From IMG/VR virus record IMGVR_UViG_2645727673_000001: a stretch of 12,127 nt of DNA; one strand, written 5' to 3'. Both the position numbers and the translations under genes were made by a program. Each line of letters starts with the position of its first letter. The first letter of the stretch is position 1. Positions 1 through 12,127 of the stretch are shown here, piece by piece. Under the pieces are notes generated by a model that had not been told where the DNA came from, made no database searches, and saw only the letters and a program-made list of their open reading frames with translations. This stretch comes from a virus (taxonomy: Duplodnaviria > Heunggongvirae > Uroviricota > Caudoviricetes).

Positions 1-177
1 GGTATTCCCCTCACTGTCCAGCACCGGTGTACTGTTCAGCAGCACGCTTTTTAATCCATCCACCGGACCTTCAATCGGCCCTTCGCTGATGGCATCGATC
101 ACACTCAGCAACTGCGTGGATTTCAGGTTATCCTTCGCTTCGCGCGGGGTATGCCCCTTACTGCTGCCTTTACCCAT
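1..177 (-). CDS. J: Central tail fiber / tail tip protein J, N-terminal 59 codons only (gene continues beyond the left edge of the window)
   Basis: Reverse-complement translation from the ATG at 175-177 gives MGKGSSKGHTPREAKDNLKSTQLLSVIDAISEGPIEGPVDGLKSVLLNSTPVLDSEGNT, which I recognise as the lambda gpJ N-terminus. GGAG lies 8 nt upstream of the ATG. It follows gene I as in lambda. It is absent from the ORF track because it is truncated by the window edge. Confidence 0.9.
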   Translation of the reverse strand, partial: MGKGSSKGHTPREAKDNLKSTQLLSVIDAISEGPIEGPVDGLKSVLLNSTPVLDSEGNT

Positions 178-190
178 TCGTCATGCTCCA

Positions 191-218
191 TAAACGACAA
201 AACCGCCCGGAGGCGGTT
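191..218 (-). terminator. Terminator-like hairpin in the I-J intergenic region
   Basis: Perfect 7-bp inverted repeat AACCGCC (201-207) / GGCGGTT (212-218) with a 4-nt loop. On the minus strand it is followed by the U-rich run TTTTGTCGTTT, immediately upstream of the J ribosome-binding site. Confidence 0.35.
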
Positions 219-237
219 TCACATAAAACATTTTGCA

Positions 238-885
238 TCAGCGACCAATCACCACAACCTGACCACCGTCCCCTTCGTCTGCCGTGCTGATCTCCTGAGA
301 AACCACCCGCGACCCCACACGCATTTCACCGTACAGAACAGGCAAAACATTGCCCTGAGCAACCATGTTATCCAGTGAGGAGAAATAGGTGTTCTGTTTG
401 CCGTTATCTGTACTGGCTGCCGTGGGCGTCCTGGCTTTCGGTGCCAGCATCTGGGCCACACCACCCAGGATCATACTGGCCCCTGCCGCATACATGCCCG
501 ATACAGCCGCAGCACCCAGCCAGCCCACAGGGTTCCACCATGCCACCGCAATCAGCGCCGCCCCCAGCACCACCTGAAACACACCGCCACTTTTAGCTCC
601 CGCCATACGCGGCACGATGTGAATCACGGCACCATTTTCCAGCGGCTCATTAAGACGGGCAGATAATTCATTTTCTCCCGCATCACGCCCGGCAATGCGC
701 ACCTGATACCAGCCCTCATTCAGTTTCTGGCGAAACGACGGAAGCTGTGTGGCCAGCGCCCGGATGGCTTCAGCCCCCGTTTTCACACGAAGGTCGATGC
801 GGCGGCCAAATCGTTGTAAATCCCCGTAAAGGCAGATGCGTGCCATGCCCGGTGACGCCAGAGGGAGTGTGTGCGTCGCTGCCAT
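238..885 (-). CDS. I: Tail assembly protein I
   Basis: 215-aa ORF with ATG start. N-terminus MAATHTLPLASPGMARICLYGDLQRFGRRIDLRVKTGAEAIRALATQL and C-terminus NGKQNTYFSSLDNMVAQGNVLPVLYGEMRVGSRVVSQEISTADEGDGGQVVVIGR match lambda gpI as I recall it. Gly/Ala-rich hydrophobic middle segment. Lies between K and J. Confidence 0.93.
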   Translation of the reverse strand: MAATHTLPLASPGMARICLYGDLQRFGRRIDLRVKTGAEAIRALATQLPSFRQKLNEGWYQVRIAGRDAGENELSARLNEPLENGAVIHIVPRMAGAKSGGVFQVVLGAALIAVAWWNPVGWLGAAAVSGMYAAGASMILGGVAQMLAPKARTPTAASTDNGKQNTYFSSLDNMVAQGNVLPVLYGEMRVGSRVVSQEISTADEGDGGQVVVIGR

Positions 886-1526
886 TTGTCGGTATACCTC
901 TCTCGTTTGCTCAGTTGTTCAGGAATATGGTGCAGCAGCTCGCCATCACCACAGTAAATGGCGGCATGATTCGGCACCGATGAACCAAAACAGCACAGCA
1001 GCACATCGCCCGGCTGCGCCTCTGTCAGTGCGACACGGTAAAAACCAGTCGCCTCCATATTGTCAAGATAGAGATTCTGGCCGTTACGCCACCAGTCATC
1101 TCCGCGATGAAAATCCGGCATCTCAATTCCCGCCAGATGGTATGCATCCCGGAACAGCGTGTAACAGTCCGTCACCCCGTGCTCAAAGCGCCGCCCGGTA
1201 AGATGTGGCACACAGCGGAACTTGTGAATCGCCCCGCGGCAGACCAGCCACCACGGCAAATCACTCTGCACCTGCAGCCGCCGATCGGCCTCACTCAGCC
1301 AGGGCAGACCACCGGGATGACTGTGGACCAGCGCCACAATCTCACCCTGCATTTCTGCCCGCAGCCAGTCCTCCGGAGCCATCCGGAAATACGCCTCCGG
1401 CTCACCGGAGATATTCACGCAGGGAAAATATCTTTCTCCCTCCGGCATTCTCACCACGAAGCCGCACGACTCCGCTGGCGCACATCGCCGGGCGTGCGCC
1501 AGAATCGCTGATTCTGTCTCTGTCAT
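783..1526 (-). CDS. K: Tail assembly protein K (MPN/JAMM domain plus NlpC/P60 domain)
   Basis: 247-aa ORF with ATG start 5 nt after the L stop codon. JAMM motif HSHPGGLPWLSEAD (HxHx7Sx2D) is present, and a downstream Cys in GVTDCYTLF fits an NlpC/P60 catalytic cysteine. Highly similar to lambda gpK. Its 3' end overlaps the start of I by about 100 nt. Confidence 0.93.
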   Translation of the reverse strand: MTETESAILAHARRCAPAESCGFVVRMPEGERYFPCVNISGEPEAYFRMAPEDWLRAEMQGEIVALVHSHPGGLPWLSEADRRLQVQSDLPWWLVCRGAIHKFRCVPHLTGRRFEHGVTDCYTLFRDAYHLAGIEMPDFHRGDDWWRNGQNLYLDNMEATGFYRVALTEAQPGDVLLCCFGSSVPNHAAIYCGDGELLHHIPEQLSKRERYTDKWQRRTHSLWRHRAWHASAFTGIYNDLAAASTFV

Positions 1527-1531
1527 GGGAT

Positions 1532-2230
1532 TTACTGCGAAAGTTTGTTAATGGAAAGGTAACCGCCAAAGTTGCCGACGTTATTGCGAAACTTACAGCC
1601 GCTAAGGCATTTGCTGCATTTATCCTTCGTGATATCGGACGTCGGCTGGTCATATTCATCCGCGACTGCCGGACCGTGATAACCGCACTCATCACCGCGA
1701 TAGGTCCAGGTGCAGGTGTTGGCCAGCATGATACGCCCCGGAAAAACAGCACCGTCCGTTTCCGTCGGCGTGGACAGTACAAAAGAAGCACTGACCGCAC
1801 TCAGTTCACTGCACTGCTCGATGCGCCAGCTGCTGATCACCTCCTGCTCCTGGTCGGCATCACTGTTTCCGTTGACGAAGTTCACCGCATCCAGAAAACG
1901 GGCGTAAACCTTACGCCGGACCACCGTTCCGCCGACCAGACTCTGCAGATCTTCCGCCATACCGGTGACCATACCGTGCAGGTTAGAAACCGTCAGTGTC
2001 GGACGGGCAGCACTGCCCTTGCCGTTCAGTTCAAATCCTGTCCCCTGAATGGGGTATGCCTGATACTGCCGCCCCTGCCAGGTGACCGGCTCACCTTTTT
2101 CGTTCTGCTCATTACATAAAAAATAACGTTCACCACCGACCTCTGTCAGATCGATTTCCCAGAGCACCACCTGGGCTGACTGAGTGAGGCGTGTCGTCTC
2201 ATGATGTGTTTCCTGTGGAATATCCTGCAT
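1532..2230 (-). CDS. L: Minor tail protein L
   Basis: Translation MQDIPQETHHETTRLTQSAQVVLWEIDLTEVGGERYFLCNEQNEKGEPVTWQGRQYQ ... CSKCLSGCKFRNNVGNFGGYLSINKLSQ matches lambda gpL, including the C-terminal cysteine cluster. Start chosen at the second of two tandem ATGs (2230) because AGGAGG lies 5 nt upstream; the first ATG (2233) is only 2 nt from it. Confidence 0.95.
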   Translation of the reverse strand: MQDIPQETHHETTRLTQSAQVVLWEIDLTEVGGERYFLCNEQNEKGEPVTWQGRQYQAYPIQGTGFELNGKGSAARPTLTVSNLHGMVTGMAEDLQSLVGGTVVRRKVYARFLDAVNFVNGNSDADQEQEVISSWRIEQCSELSAVSASFVLSTPTETDGAVFPGRIMLANTCTWTYRGDECGYHGPAVADEYDQPTSDITKDKCSKCLSGCKFRNNVGNFGGYLSINKLSQ

Positions 2231-2239
2231 CATGGCCTC

Positions 2240-2569
2240 CTATGCCACGACCTGTTCAAAATCTGCCGTTATGGTTACCCACAGCGCCCCCACGCTTGCC
2301 GACCATTTACGACAAACCACCCTAATCGGCTTCCAGTCATAAGGTGGCGTCCACTGAAATGCGCGGACGCCACCGTGCCGTTCCAGAAAGGCTTTTAAAG
2401 ATGGGTGTTCACATTTACGAACACGTATCGTCACGCTGTAAGTCGACAACTGGTTATTCAGTCCCGCCGCACGACGCTGTTCATAACCATCGCCCAGCTT
2501 CACTGTCACCACTTTCGGTTCTGATACCACATTCATATCCGGGCGCACTTTCCAGTGAAACGTCTCCAT
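2240..2569 (-). CDS. M: Minor tail protein M
   Basis: 109-aa ORF METFHWKVRPDMNVVSEPKVVTVKLGDGYEQRRAAGLNNQLSTYSVTIRV ... ADFEQVVA, same length and clear similarity to lambda gpM. Its ATG overlaps the H stop codon (TAATG). Confidence 0.95.
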   Translation of the reverse strand: METFHWKVRPDMNVVSEPKVVTVKLGDGYEQRRAAGLNNQLSTYSVTIRVRKCEHPSLKAFLERHGGVRAFQWTPPYDWKPIRVVCRKWSASVGALWVTITADFEQVVA

Positions 2570-5500
2570 TACCGATATGCTCCACTTAACCGACCACCAT
2601 CACGGGCCTGCTGTTGCATAAAGTCCGCTGCCGCTTTTTTCCCGAGGTCATAAACCACCTTCAGGGCAGCCGGACCTATCTGCCCGTTCGTGCCATCGTT
2701 ATTGATCTCGATGTTGTACTGCGGGGCAAACATCGCCATACCTGAACCACCAATATCCGCCACAACCCCCAGCTTACCGTCAGCACCACGACGCAGTGGC
2801 AGAATGGCTTCAGGTCCAGCTTCCCCCATCACACCTGCACCTTTTGCAAAAGCAAAAAACGTCGGACGGTTAACCACCGTGCCACTGTAGCGACTCAAAT
2901 CAGCAGACTGATAAACACCACCATCAGCATTGGGCGTCACACTGGCAGTTGCTGCACTCCCCCAGCCAAACGCCGAACCAATCCCCTTAACTGCCTGCAT
3001 CATGGACATCTGGGCCATGATTTTTGCCAGATCAGAAAGGAGCGAGGCGGTAAAAGATTTGAAGTTCAGTTTTCCGGTAGTACAGAACGTTGCCAGTGCA
3101 TTACCTGCACTGTTAAATGCCGCTGTAAGCATCTGCTCAGCAGTGCCTGCCGCATTATCCGCATCTGCCGTGAAATTCTGAAACGCCCGCATAGCACCGT
3201 TTTTCCAGTTACCCTGAGCAATTTCAAGCTGTTGCCAGTAACGGCGATTCTCATTCAGTTGTCGGTTCAGGCTCTCCGTCAGCGCCTGCTCGGCCTTTCT
3301 GTAGTCATCCGTGTTATATGTCCCTTTCTGCTCACTATCCCGCCTCAACTGCTCCAGCTGTTGCTGGTATTTCTGGCGAAGACTCAGTTGTACCTGATAT
3401 CGCTGCCGCTGCTGATCACCCATACCCACCGTGGCGATATCCAGGTCATGTTGCTGACGCTGAGCGCGCTCTTCTTCAGCCAGTTGACTGGTCAGCTGAA
3501 TTGTTTTTTTCTTCAGCTCGTTGAGTGCCGTCTGTTTCTGAAGCTCCTGCTGTTTTACATCCAGCAGCGTCAGTGCCTGAATCAGTTCATCTTTACGGGC
3601 CAGCACACTCTTTTCATCTGCCGTCAGTTTTTTCCCGTCCAGGTCGCTGATGCGCTGCTGCAGAGCCAGAAGCTGTTTATGCGCTTCTGTCATCTTTTCA
3701 GTGGCAATGCCTGCTGACTGTCTTGCAGCAGCAATCTGCCCTTCCACCTGTGCCTGTTGCTGACTGTACTGCAGCAATAACCGGGTGGCCTCATCATTAC
3801 GGGTTTCGCGTGTTTTTTTCTTACCGGATGCCAGGGCTTTCTCGTAACGTTCATTTTCACGTTGTATCGCCGCATCCCTGACAGCCTGGTCGGCGTACTG
3901 CATGGCATTAATACGCGCAATTTCACGCTGATGTCGTGCTGCTTCCGTTTCATTCATCCGGTTCAGTGCAGCATTTTCAGCATTACGTCGTTTCTGTTGC
4001 TCCTGATAATTCCGCTCTGCCTGCTCTTTTGCATCCTGCAAATCCTTCTGGCGTTTTTTCTCCTGAAGATCGTTAAGACGCTGCTGATCGTATTCAACCT
4101 GAGAAGATGATGCCGTCCAGGGGAGTCTTTTCGCCCGCGACACTTTCTCCTGTAAAGCGGCAATCTGTTCATCCAGCGAGTCTTCACGACCAATATTCAT
4201 GGCCGCATCCCAGAAACGACTCCACAAATCAGACAGATACTTCAGCGTACTGCCAAGCGCATTGAGGTTATTATCAATATCCGCAGTACGCCGACCGGTT
4301 TCCTCTGCCAGTGCAGACATGGCTATCCGTGCAGCATCACTGGACCGTCCCTGATCCCCAAGGACACGTATCTGCTCAAGCTGAGTGGCAGTAAGAAAAT
4401 GCAGCTCATTGTCCAGAGCCTTCGCGGCATTTACAGGATCATCCTTCAGCCGCTTAAACTGATTTATGGTATCGCTGACCGACTGGCCAACCGATCGCTC
4501 CATCTGTGCGGCAGCTCTCGCCACCATACCGATATCGTTTCCACGAAATGCACCACTCCCCACCACCTGCGCCAGCGCACCGGCTGCAGCATGTTGCGTG
4601 ATACCATTCCCGGAAATAGCACGACTAAGCGTCCACAGCTGCCCGGCAGTGACTCCGGCATAATGCCCCGTCAGCGACAACTGGCGGTTAAATTCTTCCC
4701 CCTCCTTCTGACCGTCATACCAGGCTTTACCCAGACCATAGACGGCCGCGGCAATACCGCCAATAACCCCGCCCAGCATCATGCCTTTCGGTGACATCAG
4801 TGTGTCTATCCATCCGGCACGGTTAGCCAGCGTTATCCCGGATCCCCTCAGCGCACCTAAATTGCCGCGAGCCAGTTCACCTATCAGAACGCCTATCTCC
4901 TGGCGGGCCGCTGCACTTTTCAGACCCAGCGAATGCGTGGCTTTTCCTGCCTGCTCCATTTTGCGGATATACACTTCTGCAGCACTGCTTACCCCCAGTT
5001 GGGCAGCCTTAGCACGAAGCAACTCAGAAGAAGAAAGATTCTGGCGGGTTGCCTGCTCTTTAAGCTGACGGATAAACGCCACTTTCTGTCGGGTAGCCTC
5101 TTCCTCAGCCTGTGTAAGAACACGGGTTTTCGCCGTAACCTCAGAAATCAGCGCCAGATAATCCTGCTGACCAATCCCGCCACTGTGTCTGGCCTGTCGG
5201 ATCTGCTGCTGAATACGCTGTAATTCCTGCAGCCCCGCACTGGCCTGTTTCACACTGTCAATCTGACGATAAAACGCAGCAGCCGCTTTATCCTGAGCCT
5301 CCGCCAGAGCCATGGCCTGCGCCTGTTCATCGCGCATTTTCTGGCTCAGCGCCTCCATGCGCTGGCGGGTTTTCTCCACCTCGCGAGCCATGCGTTCATG
5401 AGCCTGTGCGTTCTTCTCCACCGTCTGCGCATGGACGGAGGCGGCTGTTGCAGCCGAAGAAGCCGCCTGCGTTGTCTGCCGGGCGGCCTGAGTCTGACGC

Positions 5501-5643
5501 TCCATAAAACGCTGCATACGGGCAGAAGACCGTTCTGCATCGCTGGCGGCACCATTCAGAAGGTTTTTGATACGGGGAATTTCATTTTTAAACTCTGCCG
5601 CATCAATCCCCAAATCAATGACCAGGTTGGCTATCTGGTCCAT
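2569..5643 (-). CDS. H: Tail tape measure protein H
   Basis: Long ORF with a Q/A/E/R/K-rich central coiled-coil-like region. N-terminus MDQIANLVIDLGIDAAEF and C-terminus NNDGTNGQIGPAALKVVYDLGKKAAADFMQQQARDGGRLSGAYR align with the lambda gpH termini. Start set at the ATG at 5641-5643 (GGAGGT 7 nt upstream); the track start at 5673 is a TTG extension. About 1024 aa. Confidence 0.95.
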   Translation of the reverse strand: MDQIANLVIDLGIDAAEFKNEIPRIKNLLNGAASDAERSSARMQRFMERQTQAARQTTQAASSAATAASVHAQTVEKNAQAHERMAREVEKTRQRMEALSQKMRDEQAQAMALAEAQDKAAAAFYRQIDSVKQASAGLQELQRIQQQIRQARHSGGIGQQDYLALISEVTAKTRVLTQAEEEATRQKVAFIRQLKEQATRQNLSSSELLRAKAAQLGVSSAAEVYIRKMEQAGKATHSLGLKSAAARQEIGVLIGELARGNLGALRGSGITLANRAGWIDTLMSPKGMMLGGVIGGIAAAVYGLGKAWYDGQKEGEEFNRQLSLTGHYAGVTAGQLWTLSRAISGNGITQHAAAGALAQVVGSGAFRGNDIGMVARAAAQMERSVGQSVSDTINQFKRLKDDPVNAAKALDNELHFLTATQLEQIRVLGDQGRSSDAARIAMSALAEETGRRTADIDNNLNALGSTLKYLSDLWSRFWDAAMNIGREDSLDEQIAALQEKVSRAKRLPWTASSSQVEYDQQRLNDLQEKKRQKDLQDAKEQAERNYQEQQKRRNAENAALNRMNETEAARHQREIARINAMQYADQAVRDAAIQRENERYEKALASGKKKTRETRNDEATRLLLQYSQQQAQVEGQIAAARQSAGIATEKMTEAHKQLLALQQRISDLDGKKLTADEKSVLARKDELIQALTLLDVKQQELQKQTALNELKKKTIQLTSQLAEEERAQRQQHDLDIATVGMGDQQRQRYQVQLSLRQKYQQQLEQLRRDSEQKGTYNTDDYRKAEQALTESLNRQLNENRRYWQQLEIAQGNWKNGAMRAFQNFTADADNAAGTAEQMLTAAFNSAGNALATFCTTGKLNFKSFTASLLSDLAKIMAQMSMMQAVKGIGSAFGWGSAATASVTPNADGGVYQSADLSRYSGTVVNRPTFFAFAKGAGVMGEAGPEAILPLRRGADGKLGVVADIGGSGMAMFAPQYNIEINNDGTNGQIGPAALKVVYDLGKKAAADFMQQQARDGGRLSGAYR

Positions 5644-5965
5644 AACGCACACCTCCGGAAATACCTTCTCCAAGATGCATCAGTTCTTCGTCCGTTCGCT
5701 CCGGTATCCCGTTCTCTTCCGGTAAAAGGCTGAAATCAGCCACCGCAGCATCACTGCTGCCGGACACCATTCTCACGATCAATGCCTTCAGCGAGGCAAA
5801 CTGCGCATCCATCCACACATCACTGAAGCTCTGCATCCGGAAATAATCGCCCCACTCACCAAGCTCAGTGGCCGACATTTCCGACAGCATCCGCCGCCAG
5901 TCTGCCCGCCGGAACTCCCGGGCAAGCCGCATGACAAACTGCATTTCCCGCGTCAGGACTTTTCC
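5615..5965 (-). CDS. T: T segment of the tail assembly chaperone G-T, expressed as a -1 frameshift extension of G
   Basis: The ORF at 5615-5944 lies in the -1 frame relative to G and overlaps the G 3' end. That frame is open upstream through the heptamer GGAAAAG (minus strand, about 5959-5965), one base different from the lambda slip site GGGAAAG as I recall it. Position between G and H matches lambda. The 5' boundary is approximate (slip site). Confidence 0.75.
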   Translation of the reverse strand, partial: GKVLTREMQFVMRLAREFRRADWRRMLSEMSATELGEWGDYFRMQSFSDVWMDAQFASLKALIVRMVSGSSDAAVADFSLLPEENGIPERTDEELMHLGEGISGGVRYGPDSQPGH

Positions 5966-6342
5966 GGCGTCAGCGCCTCATGCTCATCATCCCCGGCATT
6001 ATCAATGGCCCCCATACCGCTCAGCGACAGAACCATCTCCGCCCCCGCACCCAGGGCATCATACGACCATGTTGTAATAACGGATGCGCAAAGCGTCTCT
6101 ACATCCTTAGACTGATCCGCATTCCACAGTGAGCGGGAAACCAGCCAGGCATTGATATCCATCCCCATCCGCAGAAAAGCAATCTGTCGTTCAGCCTCCG
6201 GCAGTTCTCCCTCCCCGGCATCAAACTTTGCCGTTCGCTGCTGAACAAACGCCAGATATTCAATTCTCTGCAGCCCGGACAGCTCACTGAGCACCACGGA
6301 CTGTTTTTCATAATTAAACGTGCCCTGTTTCAGAAACATCAT
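5953..6342 (-). CDS. G: Tail assembly chaperone G
   Basis: ORF ending EHEALTPEKS-stop, located between V and T/H as in lambda. Start set at the tandem ATG ATG (6337-6342) with GGTGGAG just upstream; the track start at 6381 is a TTG that runs through the upstream hairpin. Confidence 0.85.
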   Translation of the reverse strand: MMFLKQGTFNYEKQSVVLSELSGLQRIEYLAFVQQRTAKFDAGEGELPEAERQIAFLRMGMDINAWLVSRSLWNADQSKDVETLCASVITTWSYDALGAGAEMVLSLSGMGAIDNAGDDEHEALTPEKS

Positions 6343-6355
6343 GTTCTCCACCTGC

Positions 6356-6379
6356 AAAAAAGCCCCGAATAACCGGGGC
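6356..6379 (-). terminator. Rho-independent terminator-like hairpin between V and G
   Basis: Minus strand reads GCCCCG-GTTATT-CGGGGC (perfect 6-bp GC stem, 6-nt loop) followed directly by TTTTTT, then the G ribosome-binding site and start 13 nt later. Confidence 0.5.
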
Positions 6380-6391
6380 AAATGATGAGTA

Positions 6392-6760
6392 TCATCCTGT
6401 TAACCTGCGGCGCTGACAGCCACCGTATTTGATACGAAACGCGCAGACTTCACCGGAGTCGAACAACTGAACCAGTTTTTTCTGCCCGCTGTCACCCGGA
6501 CGCCAGGCCAGCGTCGCCGAAGTATCACCGACGGATTTCTGCCCCTGGGTTGTCGTTTTCCAGTCTGCATCTTCATCATCGAGATAAGTGTCATCTTCTG
6601 CATCAGCGGTCATTTCGCCAGGTTGCAGATCCTTCACCATCGCAAGACGCAGCCAGTCAGTGTCCGATAAAGGGTTCGCAAACGCATCGCCCTTGCCGGT
6701 GTACATCCAGAACGTCGTTCCCGCACCTTTCGTTTTTGCCAGTGGATTTGGTGTGGTCAT
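6392..6760 (-). CDS. V: Major tail tube protein V homologue, short form (122 aa): N-terminal domain only, possibly truncated
   Basis: [86 protein letters not shown] aligns with the first ~110 residues of lambda gpV. After FRIKY the sequence diverges ([10 protein letters not shown]) and stops. AAGGAGGT ribosome-binding site 4-5 nt upstream of the ATG at 6758-6760. Confidence 0.8.
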
Positions 6761-6770
6761 TGCCACCTCC

Positions 6771-7172
6771 TTAATTCGTGTACGTGATCTGGTACGTGAT
6801 TTCCGCCATCGCCCAGGTGGCCATCTCATTATCACGTTGATAGTTAAAACCGAGTGGGATCAGGGTGTCGATGAGTCCGGAAAGTGCCGGTACATCATTC
6901 AGGGCCGGGAAAATGGTGCTCTCCATCCACATATCCAGCTCTGAATCCGGTGCCTGTGCCCGGATGAAGACAGCAATATGCAGAACAGCCTGCCAGTCAT
7001 CTTCATCCGTCATTTTTCCGGTGTACTGAGCATCACTCAGCCACACCGCCACGGCAGGCAGTTCCTGCGCATCAACAAATGCCGGAAGCCCGTCAAAAAA
7101 CGTGGCGCTGTCTCCACACTGTTCCCGAAGGCGTGCCAGTACGGCCTGGCGGATTTGTGTATGTCGGTTCAT
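6771..7172 (-). CDS. U: Tail terminator protein U
   Basis: [52 protein letters not shown] ... matches lambda gpU (ATFFDG, PAVAV, PDSELD-WMES motifs). Start chosen at the ATG at 7170-7172, which overlaps the Z stop as ATGA; an in-frame ATG 4 codons upstream (7184) is the alternative. The stop codon lies inside the V ribosome-binding site. Confidence 0.9.
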
Positions 7173-7747
7173 CGGGTCAGCCATAACCTCAGTTGTTGTT
7201 TCAGTGCATACCCCAGCTGTTTCGGCATTTCCGCAGCAATGATGCGGTCGCGGGCATCTTCAAATGCCTGTGTCAGCGGTCCGGACAGCGGGATTTTCAC
7301 CACATCAATGGGGTAACGATTTTTGCCATCAATACGCCGCATCACATGCCAGCGACCATTCGCCAGTTGCTGAATAAACGCATCCCGGAAAAGATATTTA
7401 CCCACCTTCAGCACACTGCCACGGTACTGCAGTTTTCCACCACGCCGGGCCAGTCTGACCCGGGCTGTCCCCAGCTTAATGGCGGGCAGATTGCCCCGGT
7501 TAACGCGGATCCTGGCCGTCATTTTTCCTGACGGACTGGCTTTAAACACCCGGACACGCTGACGTACCAGTTTCAGGGGGATCCCTTTCACCTGGTTATC
7601 TCCCGCAACGGTATTCCCGGCAACCTGCCGGGTGGCAACCGAGACCGCTTTCTGTGCCACACGGTTTATCGCCCATGCGCTGGCCTGTGGCACCATACGG
7701 GTATCAAGGCTGTTCAGATTGCGGATGGCATTCTCAAGCCCCTTCAT
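7169..7747 (-). CDS. Z: Tail completion protein Z
   Basis: 192-aa ORF MKGLENAIRNLNSL ... [63 protein letters not shown], same length and strong similarity to lambda gpZ. AGAGGTG 5 nt upstream of the ATG. Confidence 0.93.
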   Translation of the reverse strand: MKGLENAIRNLNSLDTRMVPQASAWAINRVAQKAVSVATRQVAGNTVAGDNQVKGIPLKLVRQRVRVFKASPSGKMTARIRVNRGNLPAIKLGTARVRLARRGGKLQYRGSVLKVGKYLFRDAFIQQLANGRWHVMRRIDGKNRYPIDVVKIPLSGPLTQAFEDARDRIIAAEMPKQLGYALKQQLRLWLTR

Positions 7748-7758
7748 CCCACACCTCT

Positions 7759-8034
7759 TTACTCAATAAAGATCATTGGCTTACCGTTAAAGCGTTCATG
7801 CCGTGTGACCGTCCATTGTTGTCCGTCATAAACAACGCGATCCCCGCGCCGTGGGCGGTATCCCGAAGAAAACACCACCAGAGATACCGCAGGTCCGGAC
7901 AGAGCATTCAGCTCTGCCAGTGTTTCTCCCGGGATCACAGTCATATCGACATCATTAATCGAGGCTGTCTTTCCCATCTTTCTGACCGTGATCGCATCCA
8001 TACGCGCTGCCAGCCGGGAAAAGGGATCAGACAT
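7759..8034 (-). CDS. Small head-tail joining protein occupying the lambda FII position (not lambda FII-like in sequence)
   Basis: 91-aa ORF with ATG start, tightly packed between the DUF2190-like gene and Z. Function assigned from position and size; the sequence does not resemble lambda FII as I recall it. I believe homologues are often annotated as head-tail joining protein, or misleadingly as ATP-binding sugar transporter-like protein. Confidence 0.6.
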   Translation of the reverse strand: MSDPFSRLAARMDAITVRKMGKTASINDVDMTVIPGETLAELNALSGPAVSLVVFSSGYRPRRGDRVVYDGQQWTVTRHERFNGKPMIFIE

Positions 8035-8350
8035 TGAGTTTTACCGGCACTTCTTCTGCACTGGTTCCGGCATCTGCCCAGACAACCCCGACCAGCGGAT
8101 CAGAGCCGCTGTTAGTCAGCTGAACTTTTCCGGACTTCAGATAAACCTTCTTACCCGTTTTCATGTCATCCGTTTTCAGCTTAGGCAGCATAAACACACC
8201 TTCGGTCAGGCCGTCGCCTGTTTCACCCTGTGGAATATCGGTCAGTGCCACCGCAAAAACATCACCCACCTGCACCAGATCTCCGCTGCTGATGGCTGCA
8301 CTGGCAACAATCGCCACCGTTTTTCCTTCTTCTACAAAATTCTTTGCCAT
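8027..8350 (-). CDS. DUF2190-like small head protein (putative decoration/cement protein)
   Basis: 107-aa product MAKNFVEEGKTVAIV...VQVGDVFAVAL...GETGDGLTEGVFMLPK...GKKVYL fits the pattern I associate with DUF2190 proteins encoded just after major capsid genes. GGAGA 5 nt upstream of the ATG at 8348-8350; the track start at 8395 lies inside the upstream terminator and is rejected. Confidence 0.6.
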   Translation of the reverse strand: MAKNFVEEGKTVAIVASAAISSGDLVQVGDVFAVALTDIPQGETGDGLTEGVFMLPKLKTDDMKTGKKVYLKSGKVQLTNSGSDPLVGVVWADAGTSAEEVPVKLNV

Positions 8351-8363
8351 AACTGTCTCCGCA

Positions 8364-8382
8364 CAGCCCCGTTCAGGGGCTG
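8364..8382 (-). other. Stable hairpin upstream of the DUF2190-like gene start (possible RNA stability/processing or pause element)
   Basis: Perfect 7-bp inverted repeat CAGCCCC / GGGGCTG with a 5-nt loop, 13 nt upstream of the start codon, with no following U-tract. Confidence 0.3.
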
Positions 8383-8393
8383 ATTTCAGGTAC

Positions 8394-8413
8394 AAAAAAA
8401 GCCCTTACGGGCC
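8394..8413 (-). terminator. Terminator-like hairpin just downstream of the capsid gene
   Basis: Minus strand reads GGCCCGTAAGGGCT followed by TTTTTTT (plus-strand A-run 8394-8400). Short GC stem with a GTAA tetraloop, about 25 nt after the capsid stop codon at 8437-8439. Confidence 0.45.
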
Positions 8414-8436
8414 ATCAGAGTTGTTGTCTGCGACGT

Positions 8437-10467
8437 TTACGCCGTACATTTCACCAGACCGCGGTGATCAACTGGCGCGACACCGGCGTCAATACGCACT
8501 TTCGTTGTCACGCCATCCACACTGAAGCCCTCCATCTGATCAATATATGGCGTATCCACACCGTTGAGATAAGCCACTTCAATAGTATCGGAGCCTTTTG
8601 ACGCAGCCAGGTAGAAGGTGGTCTGGCTGTTATCATCAAGACGAGGCTCTGCAATAACGGTCGCAAAATCTTTCACCGGGTTAATAATACCGGCGTTAAT
8701 GTCAGCCCCCTTGACACTTGAGGAGCGAATGACCTGGTTAGCAACAGACTCCATCGCCGTCGGTACCAGTACGAACGCAGGACGAATATTCAGATGACGC
8801 TCCCCCTCTTTCTGAACGCGCATCAACTGGCGGGCTTTATCCAGCGATGCCACGTCCATTGCAGCGCTCTCCAGTACGTTTGCATGTTTTGCTTTATCGA
8901 ACAGACTTACATTATCTGTGGAGATTTTCGGGTTAGACGTCAGAATGGCATAAACCAGATCGGCAATAGTGGATTTCGCCGCACGGCCCAGTTTCATCGG
9001 GACATCGGTCAGCATATTCAGATCATCATTGATAATGGCCTGACGGGTGATACTGAACAGCTCGCCATAGGTCGCCAGTGCAATAGTGGCCTGTTTATCT
9101 CCGGTGGTGACGTATTTATATTCCGCCCCTTCACGCACCTGACGCAGAGCACTGAAGCCCCCCATACCCACACGATGGGCAATTTTAAAATCAGACAACT
9201 GACCTTTCCGCGTCCACTGTTCATAGGTTTCAGGGGCATCTTCCCAGCCCTGCAGAATGGCTTTGTTCGCAACATCCAGCAGAATATTACCGAAGTCAGA
9301 CGTACTGTGTGTGAACGCCGCACCGACCATCTGCATCGGGTTATAACTGGAAACCCCAATACCCCGTTCAGTCAGTGACATACGGGCATATTCACGCAGG
9401 GTCATCCCGTTGTAGACATTATCACGTTCGGTTTTTTCAAATCCGGCACGCGCCATCAGCGCCTGGCGGATCCCGTCCCCCACAAAATTACCGTTACCGG
9501 CATAAATATGAGCCGGGGTATTTTTATTGGATGGCGTGGACTCGCGCCCCATCTCGTTCAACAGCTTTTCGCGGGCCTGCTCCAGCGAACATTCAGGATC
9601 GGCAAGACACTGAGCCTGCAGCGTCTGATAACGCCCGCCAAACATGGCAAACAGATCATTAATACCGTTTACACGCGCTTTTTGCTCTGCCAGTACCTGC
9701 GCACGGATACTGTTTTCATCCACCACGGGTGCTGCTGCCTGCACTGGCGTCCGGGAGGCTGCAGGTTCATCATCCTGTACGCGTGGAGCACTGTTGCGTG
9801 GCGGAGTAATCATGTTTCGAATGGATTCCGGCATCTTTTTAAATTCCTCTGTACGTTTTGACTGAATACATGCCATTGCCTTAACGGCTGGCGTCACCTG
9901 ATCAGCAAATCCCTGTGCCAGACATTCGGCACCGGACATCCAGGTCTCATCCGCCAGCATGGCAGCAATTTCATCGGTGGTTTTCCCGGTTTTCTGTGCA
10001 TAAGCGGGTAACAGAACCGCCGCCTCAACTTTATCGAGCAGGTCGGCATAGGTGCGCATGTCCTCCGCATCACCGCCCGTAAAGCCAAATGGTTTATGAA
10101 TCATCATGAAGGAGTTTTCCGGCATAATGACCGGGTTTCCCACCATCGCAATGACCGACGCCATTGACGCCGCCACACCGTCGACATAAACGGTAATGGA
10201 CGCACCATGTGTTTTCAGTGCATTAAAAATGGCGATGCCTTCAAAGACATCGCCACCCGGTGAATTAATATGGAGATTAATGTGGGTGATATCGCCCAGT
10301 GCATTCAGATCACTGATAAACTGCTTCGCCGTAACACCCCAGAAACCAATCTCGTCATAAATATAAATATCCGCGTCACTCTGGTGACCTGCCTGCATCC
10401 TGAACCAGGAATTATTCTTCGGACTGGTCGTCGGTGTACTGCGGCTACTGTCGTTTCGTTGCGGCAC
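8437..10467 (-). CDS. Prohead protease (ClpP/S14-type) fused in one ORF to the major capsid protein
   Basis: The N-terminal region carries ClpP signature motifs INSPGG, GVAASMAS (catalytic Ser) and MMIHKPFG (catalytic His), close to E. coli ClpP INSPGG / QAASMGA / MIHQPLGG. A linker follows, then about 400 aa that I interpret as an HK97-fold major capsid domain from position and size. Start proposed at the GTG at 10465-10467, with AAAGGAGG 5 nt upstream, overlapping the portal 3' end by 23 nt. Alternatives are the ATG at 10398 (weak ribosome-binding site, would remove the conserved SWF segment) and the TTG at 10659. Confidence 0.85.
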   Translation of the reverse strand: MPQRNDSSRSTPTTSPKNNSWFRMQAGHQSDADIYIYDEIGFWGVTAKQFISDLNALGDITHINLHINSPGGDVFEGIAIFNALKTHGASITVYVDGVAASMASVIAMVGNPVIMPENSFMMIHKPFGFTGGDAEDMRTYADLLDKVEAAVLLPAYAQKTGKTTDEIAAMLADETWMSGAECLAQGFADQVTPAVKAMACIQSKRTEEFKKMPESIRNMITPPRNSAPRVQDDEPAASRTPVQAAAPVVDENSIRAQVLAEQKARVNGINDLFAMFGGRYQTLQAQCLADPECSLEQAREKLLNEMGRESTPSNKNTPAHIYAGNGNFVGDGIRQALMARAGFEKTERDNVYNGMTLREYARMSLTERGIGVSSYNPMQMVGAAFTHSTSDFGNILLDVANKAILQGWEDAPETYEQWTRKGQLSDFKIAHRVGMGGFSALRQVREGAEYKYVTTGDKQATIALATYGELFSITRQAIINDDLNMLTDVPMKLGRAAKSTIADLVYAILTSNPKISTDNVSLFDKAKHANVLESAAMDVASLDKARQLMRVQKEGERHLNIRPAFVLVPTAMESVANQVIRSSSVKGADINAGIINPVKDFATVIAEPRLDDNSQTTFYLAASKGSDTIEVAYLNGVDTPYIDQMEGFSVDGVTTKVRIDAGVAPVDHRGLVKCTA

Positions 10468-11920
10468 TGCTGCCTCCTTTATCACTGGCCGGATCGGTAT
10501 CAAATACCAGGTCCAGCTTGCGGTTTTCATCAATTTCGGCCTTGCGCCGACGTTTGACATCATCCGGATTACGACCACCTGCACGTACCCAGTCTGATTC
10601 TGTCGCCGCTCCACCACGAATCTGGATTTTCCAGGCCTCAGCCTCCTTAACAGGGTCAATCCACGGCATCACCGGTCCGGAATACACCGCGGTATACAGT
10701 GAAGAACGGTCAAGATCGCGGGGTAGCCTGATAACACCGGATGCCACAGCCTGTTTCAGCCAGGCACGATACATCGGGCGGGTGACGGCACCAATAAACC
10801 AGTCCTGCAGGATCAGGTAGCCATCAGTGGATTCAACCAGCTCCTGACGCTGGGCGCTGTAAGTGCCGTTATAGTTGCGCGCTGTACTGGAAAAACTCAG
10901 ACGACTGCCCGCCGCCACGGCACGCAACTGAGCATTACGAAAAGTTTCAAGGTTAGGATTTGGGCGATCCGACTTCACCATTCCGATTTCTTCGCCGGGT
11001 TTCAGATCGTCGTAAATAATGCCTGGCTGAATGGTAAGCTCGCGTTCATTCTCCTTGCTGTCATTACCATCCGTTTCATAGCTCTGTCCGTCGCCTTTGC
11101 GGATGTACATCCCCAGAGCAGCGGCGACCCTTGCTGCAGTCAGCTCAGAATCTTCATACTCTTTCAGGGCGCTGAGGCGGATCAGCACACCGGACAATAA
11201 AGACGTCCCGCGCATCTGGTGCAGACGGCGAACAAATTTAAGATGCAGCATTCGCTCTGCATCCACTTCTTTGGTTTCCATCTGCCGTCCGGATACAGGA
11301 CGACTTTTATACACCAGATATTTTTCGGGACGCCCCCAGTCATCAACAAACACGCCCTGATTCAGCCTGTTGCTCTCATCACTGGTCATGGGAATAAAGT
11401 CCGGCTCGAGCGCCTCCAGCCAGAAATGAACACCGGCAGAAGGCGTCAGGCTGTTTATGCGCCCGGAAACCATCTGGGCAAACACCTCACCATCGCGCAG
11501 CCAGGTACGCAGCATCAGACGTTCCAGCATCGGACGGGTAAACTGCCCGGTGACCTCCGGACTGACAGACCATTCACTCCATCGGGTACGTATCTCCGCT
11601 GCCAGATCACGGGCAATGGCCCCATTGCGTAATACCGGATGTGGCTCGACAATAATCCCGTTTTTCCCCACCACCCGTTCTTCCAGCTTGTCAAATACAC
11701 CAATGACCAGATCGTGGTTGTTATCAAGGTAACGGGCCTGCTCACGTAACGACACGGCCCCGTACTGGCTTAACTGGTCGGCAGTTCGGTTCTCCCGTCG
11801 GGCTTTGTGTGTCCGCGTCGTTTTTACGGCCTCATAAGCCTGGATCACCGCACGGGAACGCAGCCTTGCCGCTTTCCATCCTGGTGAAAAAACGCCAATC
11901 ACATCATCAAGAATTGCCAT
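10445..11920 (-). CDS. Portal protein
   Basis: 491-aa ORF from MAILDDVIG, immediately after the gpW-like gene and before the protease/capsid gene. Its ATG overlaps the W-like stop (TGATG), with GAGG 5 nt upstream. Size and position are typical of a portal; family (lambda B-type versus other) not resolved by eye. Confidence 0.85.
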   Translation of the reverse strand: MAILDDVIGVFSPGWKAARLRSRAVIQAYEAVKTTRTHKARRENRTADQLSQYGAVSLREQARYLDNNHDLVIGVFDKLEERVVGKNGIIVEPHPVLRNGAIARDLAAEIRTRWSEWSVSPEVTGQFTRPMLERLMLRTWLRDGEVFAQMVSGRINSLTPSAGVHFWLEALEPDFIPMTSDESNRLNQGVFVDDWGRPEKYLVYKSRPVSGRQMETKEVDAERMLHLKFVRRLHQMRGTSLLSGVLIRLSALKEYEDSELTAARVAAALGMYIRKGDGQSYETDGNDSKENERELTIQPGIIYDDLKPGEEIGMVKSDRPNPNLETFRNAQLRAVAAGSRLSFSSTARNYNGTYSAQRQELVESTDGYLILQDWFIGAVTRPMYRAWLKQAVASGVIRLPRDLDRSSLYTAVYSGPVMPWIDPVKEAEAWKIQIRGGAATESDWVRAGGRNPDDVKRRRKAEIDENRKLDLVFDTDPASDKGGSSAATKRQ

Positions 11921-12108
11921 CAGAACCTCGCCAGCCGGTACCCGGGATGCCCACGTCGTCGTGTAATCAGAGCCGCAAGGCGGCGCTCCCACTCCTGCCG
12001 CCCCTGCCGGATCTCAGATAAGTTTTCCATGGTCATCTGCTGACCATTAAAAGTGACGGATTTTCCGTCCAGCACCGCCATTTCAGCTTCCGTATAACGC
12101 TGAATCAT
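11920..12108 (-). CDS. W: gpW-like head-tail connector protein (true start may lie at or beyond the right edge of the window)
   Basis: C-terminus ITRRRGHPGYRLARF resembles lambda gpW ...TQRRRGPAGFYV, and size and position before the portal match. The reading frame stays open upstream of the ATG at 12106-12108 to the window edge, and alignment with lambda W suggests a few more N-terminal residues. Confidence 0.7.
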   Translation of the reverse strand: MIQRYTEAEMAVLDGKSVTFNGQQMTMENLSEIRQGRQEWERRLAALITRRRGHPGYRLARF

Positions 12109-12127
12109 GGCTTCAATATCATTCTGA

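Follow-up and report, generated by a model that had tools for sequence, protein, structure and literature searches.

A 122-codon remnant of the major tail tube gene V, probably left by a 383-bp frameshifting deletion, in an mEp460-like prophage of Escherichia coli Pa1s

The window analysed here, a stretch of 12,127 nucleotides, is contig LBBD01000096.1 (assembly GCA_000987535.1) in full; positions 2437–12127 are an exact match to 9,691 bases of that contig. The strain, E. coli Pa1s (LBBD00000000), belongs to ST410 and originated from a human sepsis in Italy in 2012. All the genes of the window are on the minus strand and make up the late morphogenesis (head and tail) block of an mEp460/cdtI-like lambdoid prophage. 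Their order is portal, ClpP-protease/capsid fusion, two small genes for head completion, Z, U, V, G, T, H (tape measure), M, L, K and I. Both ends of the contig fall within prophage genes, the left end upstream of I/J and the right end in a small gene before the terminase; such breaks are typical for repeats that are common to lambdoid prophages.

Lambda has the same gene order, Z-U-V-G-T-H, and its major tail protein gpV (NP_040592.1, 246 aa) belongs to the same family as the V product of the window. The window's V gene, here called V′, lies between U and the G/G-T chaperones and upstream of H, so that homologues of U, G, T and H flank it in the lambda order. The features at the locus are as follows.

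6771–7184, minus strand: U, tail terminator, intact (Pfam Phage_tail_U, E = 7e-61).
6392–6760, minus strand: V′, truncated and frameshifted major tail tube gene of 122 codons plus TGA, from the ORF list and its translation (ATG at 6760, TGA at 6392–6394).
6425–6760, minus strand: authentic V coding part, codons 1–112, from alignment to mEp460, E. coli WAT and lambda gpV.
6425–6428, no strand assigned: deletion junction, with 383 bp missing between 6425 and 6426, from alignment with mEp460 and E. coli WAT.
6400–6425, minus strand: 3′ end of native V that remains, with the native stop TAA (6400–6402); its own frame reads TVAVSAAG and stop.
6395–6424, minus strand: ten out-of-frame codons, made of the last 23 coding nt of V, TAA and the next 4 nt of the spacer, read in the wrong frame.
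6356–6379, minus strand: native V-G hairpin resembling an intrinsic terminator (GCCCCGG, TTAT, TCGGGGC) with T6, from a terminator scan, RNA folding and relatives.
5953–6342, minus strand: G, tail assembly chaperone, intact (Pfam Phage_TAC_2, E = 1.8e-39), of the same length as in relatives.
5615–5944, minus strand: T frame, entered from G via a −1 shift at GGAAAAG; Phage_tail_T is matched by the homologous gene of related loci.

V′ keeps a strong ribosome-binding site (AAGGAGGTGG) and its start codon. A sequence-only reading of this DNA had described its product as 122 residues long, diverging after FRIKY into unrelated residues, and the ORF at 6392–6760 agrees with that description: residues 1–112 match mEp460 V and lambda gpV residue for residue, and the final 10 align with nothing. 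Up to the junction, V′ is identical to the V gene of E. coli WAT and one base off that of mEp460. Codon 112 is TAC in the window and TAT in the relatives, which gives tyrosine either way.

The closest known counterparts are the intact genes of mEp460 (AFM76047.1, 247 aa) and E. coli WAT (WP_089551435.1). Identity to the window is 99.9–100% over codons 1–112, the upstream ribosome-binding site, the final 26 nt of V, the hairpin and the genes U, G, T and H on either side; relative to both genes, the window lacks 383 bp (codons 113–239), is frameshifted and encodes 122 aa instead of 247. At the junction, the window reads ...CGTATCAAATA directly followed by CGGTGGCTGTCAGCGCCGCAGGTTAA, whereas the relatives have 383 more bases between these two halves, with TA at both edges. 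The TA at 6426–6427 is thus a 2-bp microhomology that leaves the breakpoint ambiguous by 2 nt. The same arrangement was seen by BLAST against a related locus (L002), where window positions 1–6427 correspond to 102–6528 and positions 6426–12127 to 6910–12608, and the 383-bp gap recurs against eight further loci, in addition to mEp460 and E. coli WAT; V has 247 aa in all of these. As 383 equals 3 × 127 + 2, the reading frame of V shifts. No direct or inverted repeats bridging the two breakpoints were found beyond the 2-bp TA. The event looks like an illegitimate recombination at this microhomology.

The frameshift can also be read from the window itself. The 67-aa ORF at 6400–6603, which had been set aside as unrelated to V, is for the most part an out-of-frame (+1) reading of V, and its last eight codons and stop (TVAVSAAG and TAA) are the true C-terminus of V; the alignment gives ...ATVAVSAAG as the end of mEp460 V. 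On its own, an ORF that ends in this way betrays a frameshifting deletion. The statement that neither of the other frames encodes the missing part of V was accurate, and the 383 bp of DNA are themselves absent in comparison with all relatives. Where a deletion or a replacement had been proposed, the deletion stands, with 383 bp lost right after codon 112, and the replacement is not supported, since the odd residues are encoded by V and spacer DNA with nothing foreign among them.

We consider it very probable that V′ is the remnant of a normal 247-codon V gene, belonging to a lambda-like prophage that is common in E. coli, that was cut by a 383-bp frameshifting deletion, and that its function has been lost. 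V would have lost the 383 bp by an illegitimate deletion at the TA microhomology, removing codons 113–239 and shifting the frame. Translation would then run in the wrong frame through the last 23 coding nt of V and past the native TAA, stopping at a TGA 5 nt past it, so that the frame ends 8 nt downstream of the native end, counted between the last bases of the two stop codons. The predicted product has the first 112 residues of V and 10 nonsense residues.

To see whether V′ is a natural variant that recurs, the relatives and the junction were surveyed at several levels. Seventeen close phage records, including mEp460, cdtI, HannyBb, Tritos, Ayreon and phi458, match a 1.4-kb V query at 97.7–99.9%, and V is 247 aa long in all 17. 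The same query is matched over at least 80% of its length by 1,833 complete E. coli genomes; among the matches listed, each consists of two pieces that span ∼1,784 bases for the 1,401 bases of the query, and a search with the whole window repeats this two-piece gap pattern. One intact locus, for example, is NZ_CP012380.1 2933178–2934961. Some 1,800 complete E. coli genomes have a full-length match, and V has 247 aa in all the rows listed for them. A tape-measure protein identical to that of the window was found on 66 blocks of the assembly collection, and at all eight distinct places shown when the 24 longest of these contigs were read it is adjoined by a 247-aa V.

The junction itself was found nowhere else. 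Neither the 5,426 complete E. coli genomes nor the 50,697 phage records searched contain a match to a 40-mer centred on it, and a 24-mer of it had no exact match in the GTDB species representatives, IMG/VR or the JGI metagenome contigs. The exact 122-aa V′ sequence was absent among ∼15 billion recorded proteins. An identical short V in many phages, which had been named as the finding that would make V′ a natural variant, was therefore found neither in the phage records nor in the other collections searched.

On either side of the junction, the window stays close to its nearest relatives: the left 6.4 kb differs by 1–3 SNPs and the right 4.8 kb by 1–7 SNPs plus a single 3-bp indel. The flanks are 99.8–99.98% identical to loci with an intact V. 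With flanks nearly identical to such loci and a junction seen nowhere else, the deletion is private and recent. V′ also has the properties of a pseudogene: its frame is disrupted relative to intact orthologues, its flanks are near-identical to theirs and its product is unrecorded in the source assembly, where the record of the Pa1s contig lists no protein for the stretch from U to G.

The uniqueness of the junction can be read in a second way, namely that the real V of Pa1s is full-length and the gap arose when a prophage region rich in repeats was assembled de novo. The junction is known from one short-read draft (MiSeq 2×250 reads, Newbler, 237 contigs), which at 60× is the least covered of its set. 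A private 3-bp insertion is also found on the contig, and several related lambdoid prophages are often present in E. coli genomes, all of which is compatible with a misassembly. However, the two sides share only the 2 bp of TA, with no repeat across the breakpoints, and since overlap and k-mer assemblers need long exact overlaps, the reads themselves should carry the junction. Moreover, the flanks are collinear and match the same relatives at 99.8–99.98%, which argues against a chimera of two prophages. An assembly or sequencing artefact is therefore unlikely, and we rank it below prophage decay as the cause of V′.

We then considered what the deletion would mean for the protein. The N (tube) domain of lambda gpV comprises residues 1–156 and the Ig domain residues 157–246 (PMC8718954; PMC10721106), and the N-domain constructs with solved structures in the PDB have 152–156 residues. 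Intact mEp460 V aligns over residues 1–245 with lambda gpV structures (PDB 6P3E, 8IYK and others; E = 1.5e-86; 2K4Q and 2L04 are further gpV entries), and V′ corresponds only to residues 1–112 of the 156-residue N-domain. The Pfam family PF16461 (Phage_TTP_12) matches residues 18–112 of V′ with E = 3.1e-45 and 153.8 bits, against a cutoff of 26.1. This match covers profile positions 1–95 of 135, whereas intact mEp460 V covers positions 1–135, so the tube domain of V′ is incomplete. Big_2 (PF02368) is matched by residues 161–241 of mEp460 V and has no match in V′.

The missing part of the fold was located on an AlphaFold model of a protein that is identical to intact V over residues 1–160 (mean pLDDT 64, ∼80 over residues 81–130). 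The low-confidence stretches of the model mostly overlap loops that were reported as flexible by NMR. In the intact N-domain, the model places strands at residues 16–20, 36–46, 80–86, 106–111, 117–127 and 137–144, and a helix at 91–102. As the V-derived part of V′ stops at residue 112, the last core strands of the tube β-sandwich (117–127 and 137–144) are lost, together with the C-terminal arm and all of the Ig domain (Big_2). From the missing strands, V′ is predicted to be unable to assemble the hexameric rings of the tail tube. The earlier suggestion that the deletion could disable the tube is thus supported by the mapping onto domains and structure. On induction, the prophage would be expected to yield tailless heads at best, unless another prophage supplies V; related E. 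coli genomes have a median of three places matching the window, and a compatible V in trans might exist.

Short V proteins do occur naturally, which bears on the proposal that V′ is a minimal V still able to form a tube. When the Ig domain alone is removed from gpV, lambda tails still form, although with 100-fold lower activity (PMC8718954; PMC10721106), and V proteins that naturally lack this domain are known from Morganella (P0055, 175 aa), Proteus (P0059, 173 aa) and Xenorhabdus (P0065, 166 aa). Like V′, these are short and have no Big_2 domain. Unlike V′, they retain the full tube domain through ...GRPxLAEE (∼residue 153); V′ ends 40 residues earlier, with its V sequence stopping at residue 112 and followed by frameshift residues. 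One cluster of Ig-less V proteins is present on 141 contigs, whereas V′ was found once. The Ig-less variants are thus marked by a full N-domain, an in-frame natural C-terminus and recurrence, and V′ has none of these. With the full-length gene in every one of the 17 close phage records and no second occurrence of V′ in the collections searched, a functional minimal V is highly improbable.

A new role for the product can be envisaged instead, in which V′ would be a dominant-negative subunit that poisons the tails of co-resident or superinfecting lambdoid phages, capping or blocking assembly of the tail tube; if so, the host would gain some protection from such relatives. V′ keeps the strong ribosome-binding site and start codon as well as the loop with the conserved DD motif, and the corresponding residues of lambda gpV, D61 and D62, are important at the ring-ring interface (PMC8718954). 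However, nothing points to selection for this private and very recent allele or to its spread, its frameshift tail is an accident, and, judging from the AlphaFold model, a β-sandwich without its last core strands would more likely be misfolded and degraded. We regard a poison subunit, too, as highly improbable.

Many equally short V homologues were retrieved and rejected as counterparts of V′. On inspection they were partial sequences at contig ends, homopolymer frameshifts or other deletions, and none of them ends like V′. One candidate for the same break at FRIKY, P0090, is from a contig of 507 bp, and its N-terminal stretch as well as its C-terminal tail look like reverse-strand readings of V; the tail matches a plus-strand ORF at 6550–6774 of the window. 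We took P0090 to be a fold-back artefact and not the V′ junction.

Other decayed V alleles (P0003, P0005, P0033 and the 123-aa products) resemble V′ in being independent lesions of the same gene, but their breakpoints differ and the FRIKY junction is in none of them. In P0003, which is on seven contigs, residue 158 of V is fused to out-of-frame tape-measure H; in P0005, residue 122 is fused to out-of-frame G; and P0033 has an in-frame internal deletion of V. Near an A6 run inside V (6476–6481, minus strand), the frame changes in many public 123-aa V fragments, among them P0015, P0018, P0019 and P0021; some of these fragments are from Shigella. The change is either a frameshift that has inactivated V repeatedly or a sequencing error that recurs. 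The independent deletion alleles suggest that V is often a casualty of decay in this mEp460-like prophage family.

The hairpin and the long spacer between V and G had been taken as further signs of a junction. Both are present as described: the spacer is 49 nt long (from the V′ stop to the first ATG of G, at 6342), and the hairpin, which reads GCCCCGGTTATTCGGGGC followed by TTTTTT, has a stem of seven pairs, six of them GC, at 6362–6379, with the T6 at 6356–6361. The lambda spacer of 15 nt and the gpV length of 246 aa, as given there, also agree with the lambda record. Nevertheless, neither the hairpin nor the spacer marks the deletion, as hairpin and spacer are base-for-base the same in the intact-V loci of mEp460 and E. 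coli WAT. The lambda spacer has no hairpin, whereas mEp460-like phages have a spacer of 57–60 nt with a terminator-like hairpin, and the 49 nt of the window are explained by the V′ stop sitting 8 nt further downstream. On this comparison, the hairpin and the long spacer are native to mEp460-like phages and not a scar.

In a terminator scan of 1.4 kb, one other site was found against 1.1 expected by chance, so the terminator pattern on its own is weak. The hairpin is annotated as a rho-independent terminator in the GenBank record of mEp460 (JQ182728), and we refer to it as a putative V-G intrinsic terminator. Since the hairpin, the ribosome-binding site of G, G itself and the G-T arrangement are all intact, no polar effect on the downstream genes is expected.

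V′ is therefore very probably a private loss-of-function lesion of an ordinary and already known kind, prophage decay, and not a new kind of tail protein. It adds one more private allele to this well-known pattern, in which V has been hit repeatedly in public assemblies. The mEp460-like prophage of Pa1s probably gives no infectious tailed particles, a point to consider when prophage mobility in this strain is estimated; outside Pa1s the lesion is of little importance. For annotation, the case shows that a frameshifting deletion can lie behind an unusual C-terminus beside a terminator hairpin, and that a hairpin with a long V-G spacer, absent in lambda, is normal in mEp460-like phages.

Three other features of the window were noted. 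A −1 shift simulated at GGAAAAG (5959–5965, minus strand), close to the 3′ end of G, gave an unbroken G-T fusion that continues in the T frame (MQFVMRLAREFRR...). The site is the counterpart of the programmed G/G-T frameshift of lambda, where the slippery heptamer is GGGAAAG, and thus differs from it in the heptamer. The private 3-bp insertion lies at 10017–10019, in the ClpP-protease/major-capsid fusion gene. It is a duplication of GCG that adds one alanine (VEAAVLL), so that the fusion protein has 676 aa in the window and 675 aa in the relatives; the exact 676-aa product is recorded on LBBD01000096.1 only. Finally, a 91-aa head-tail gene is found at 7759–8034 on the minus strand, and in related loci it has a Pfam match to Gifsy-2 (PF13856). 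RefSeq labels its homologue in E. coli WAT a ‘DNA breaking-rejoining protein’, a label that is probably misleading.
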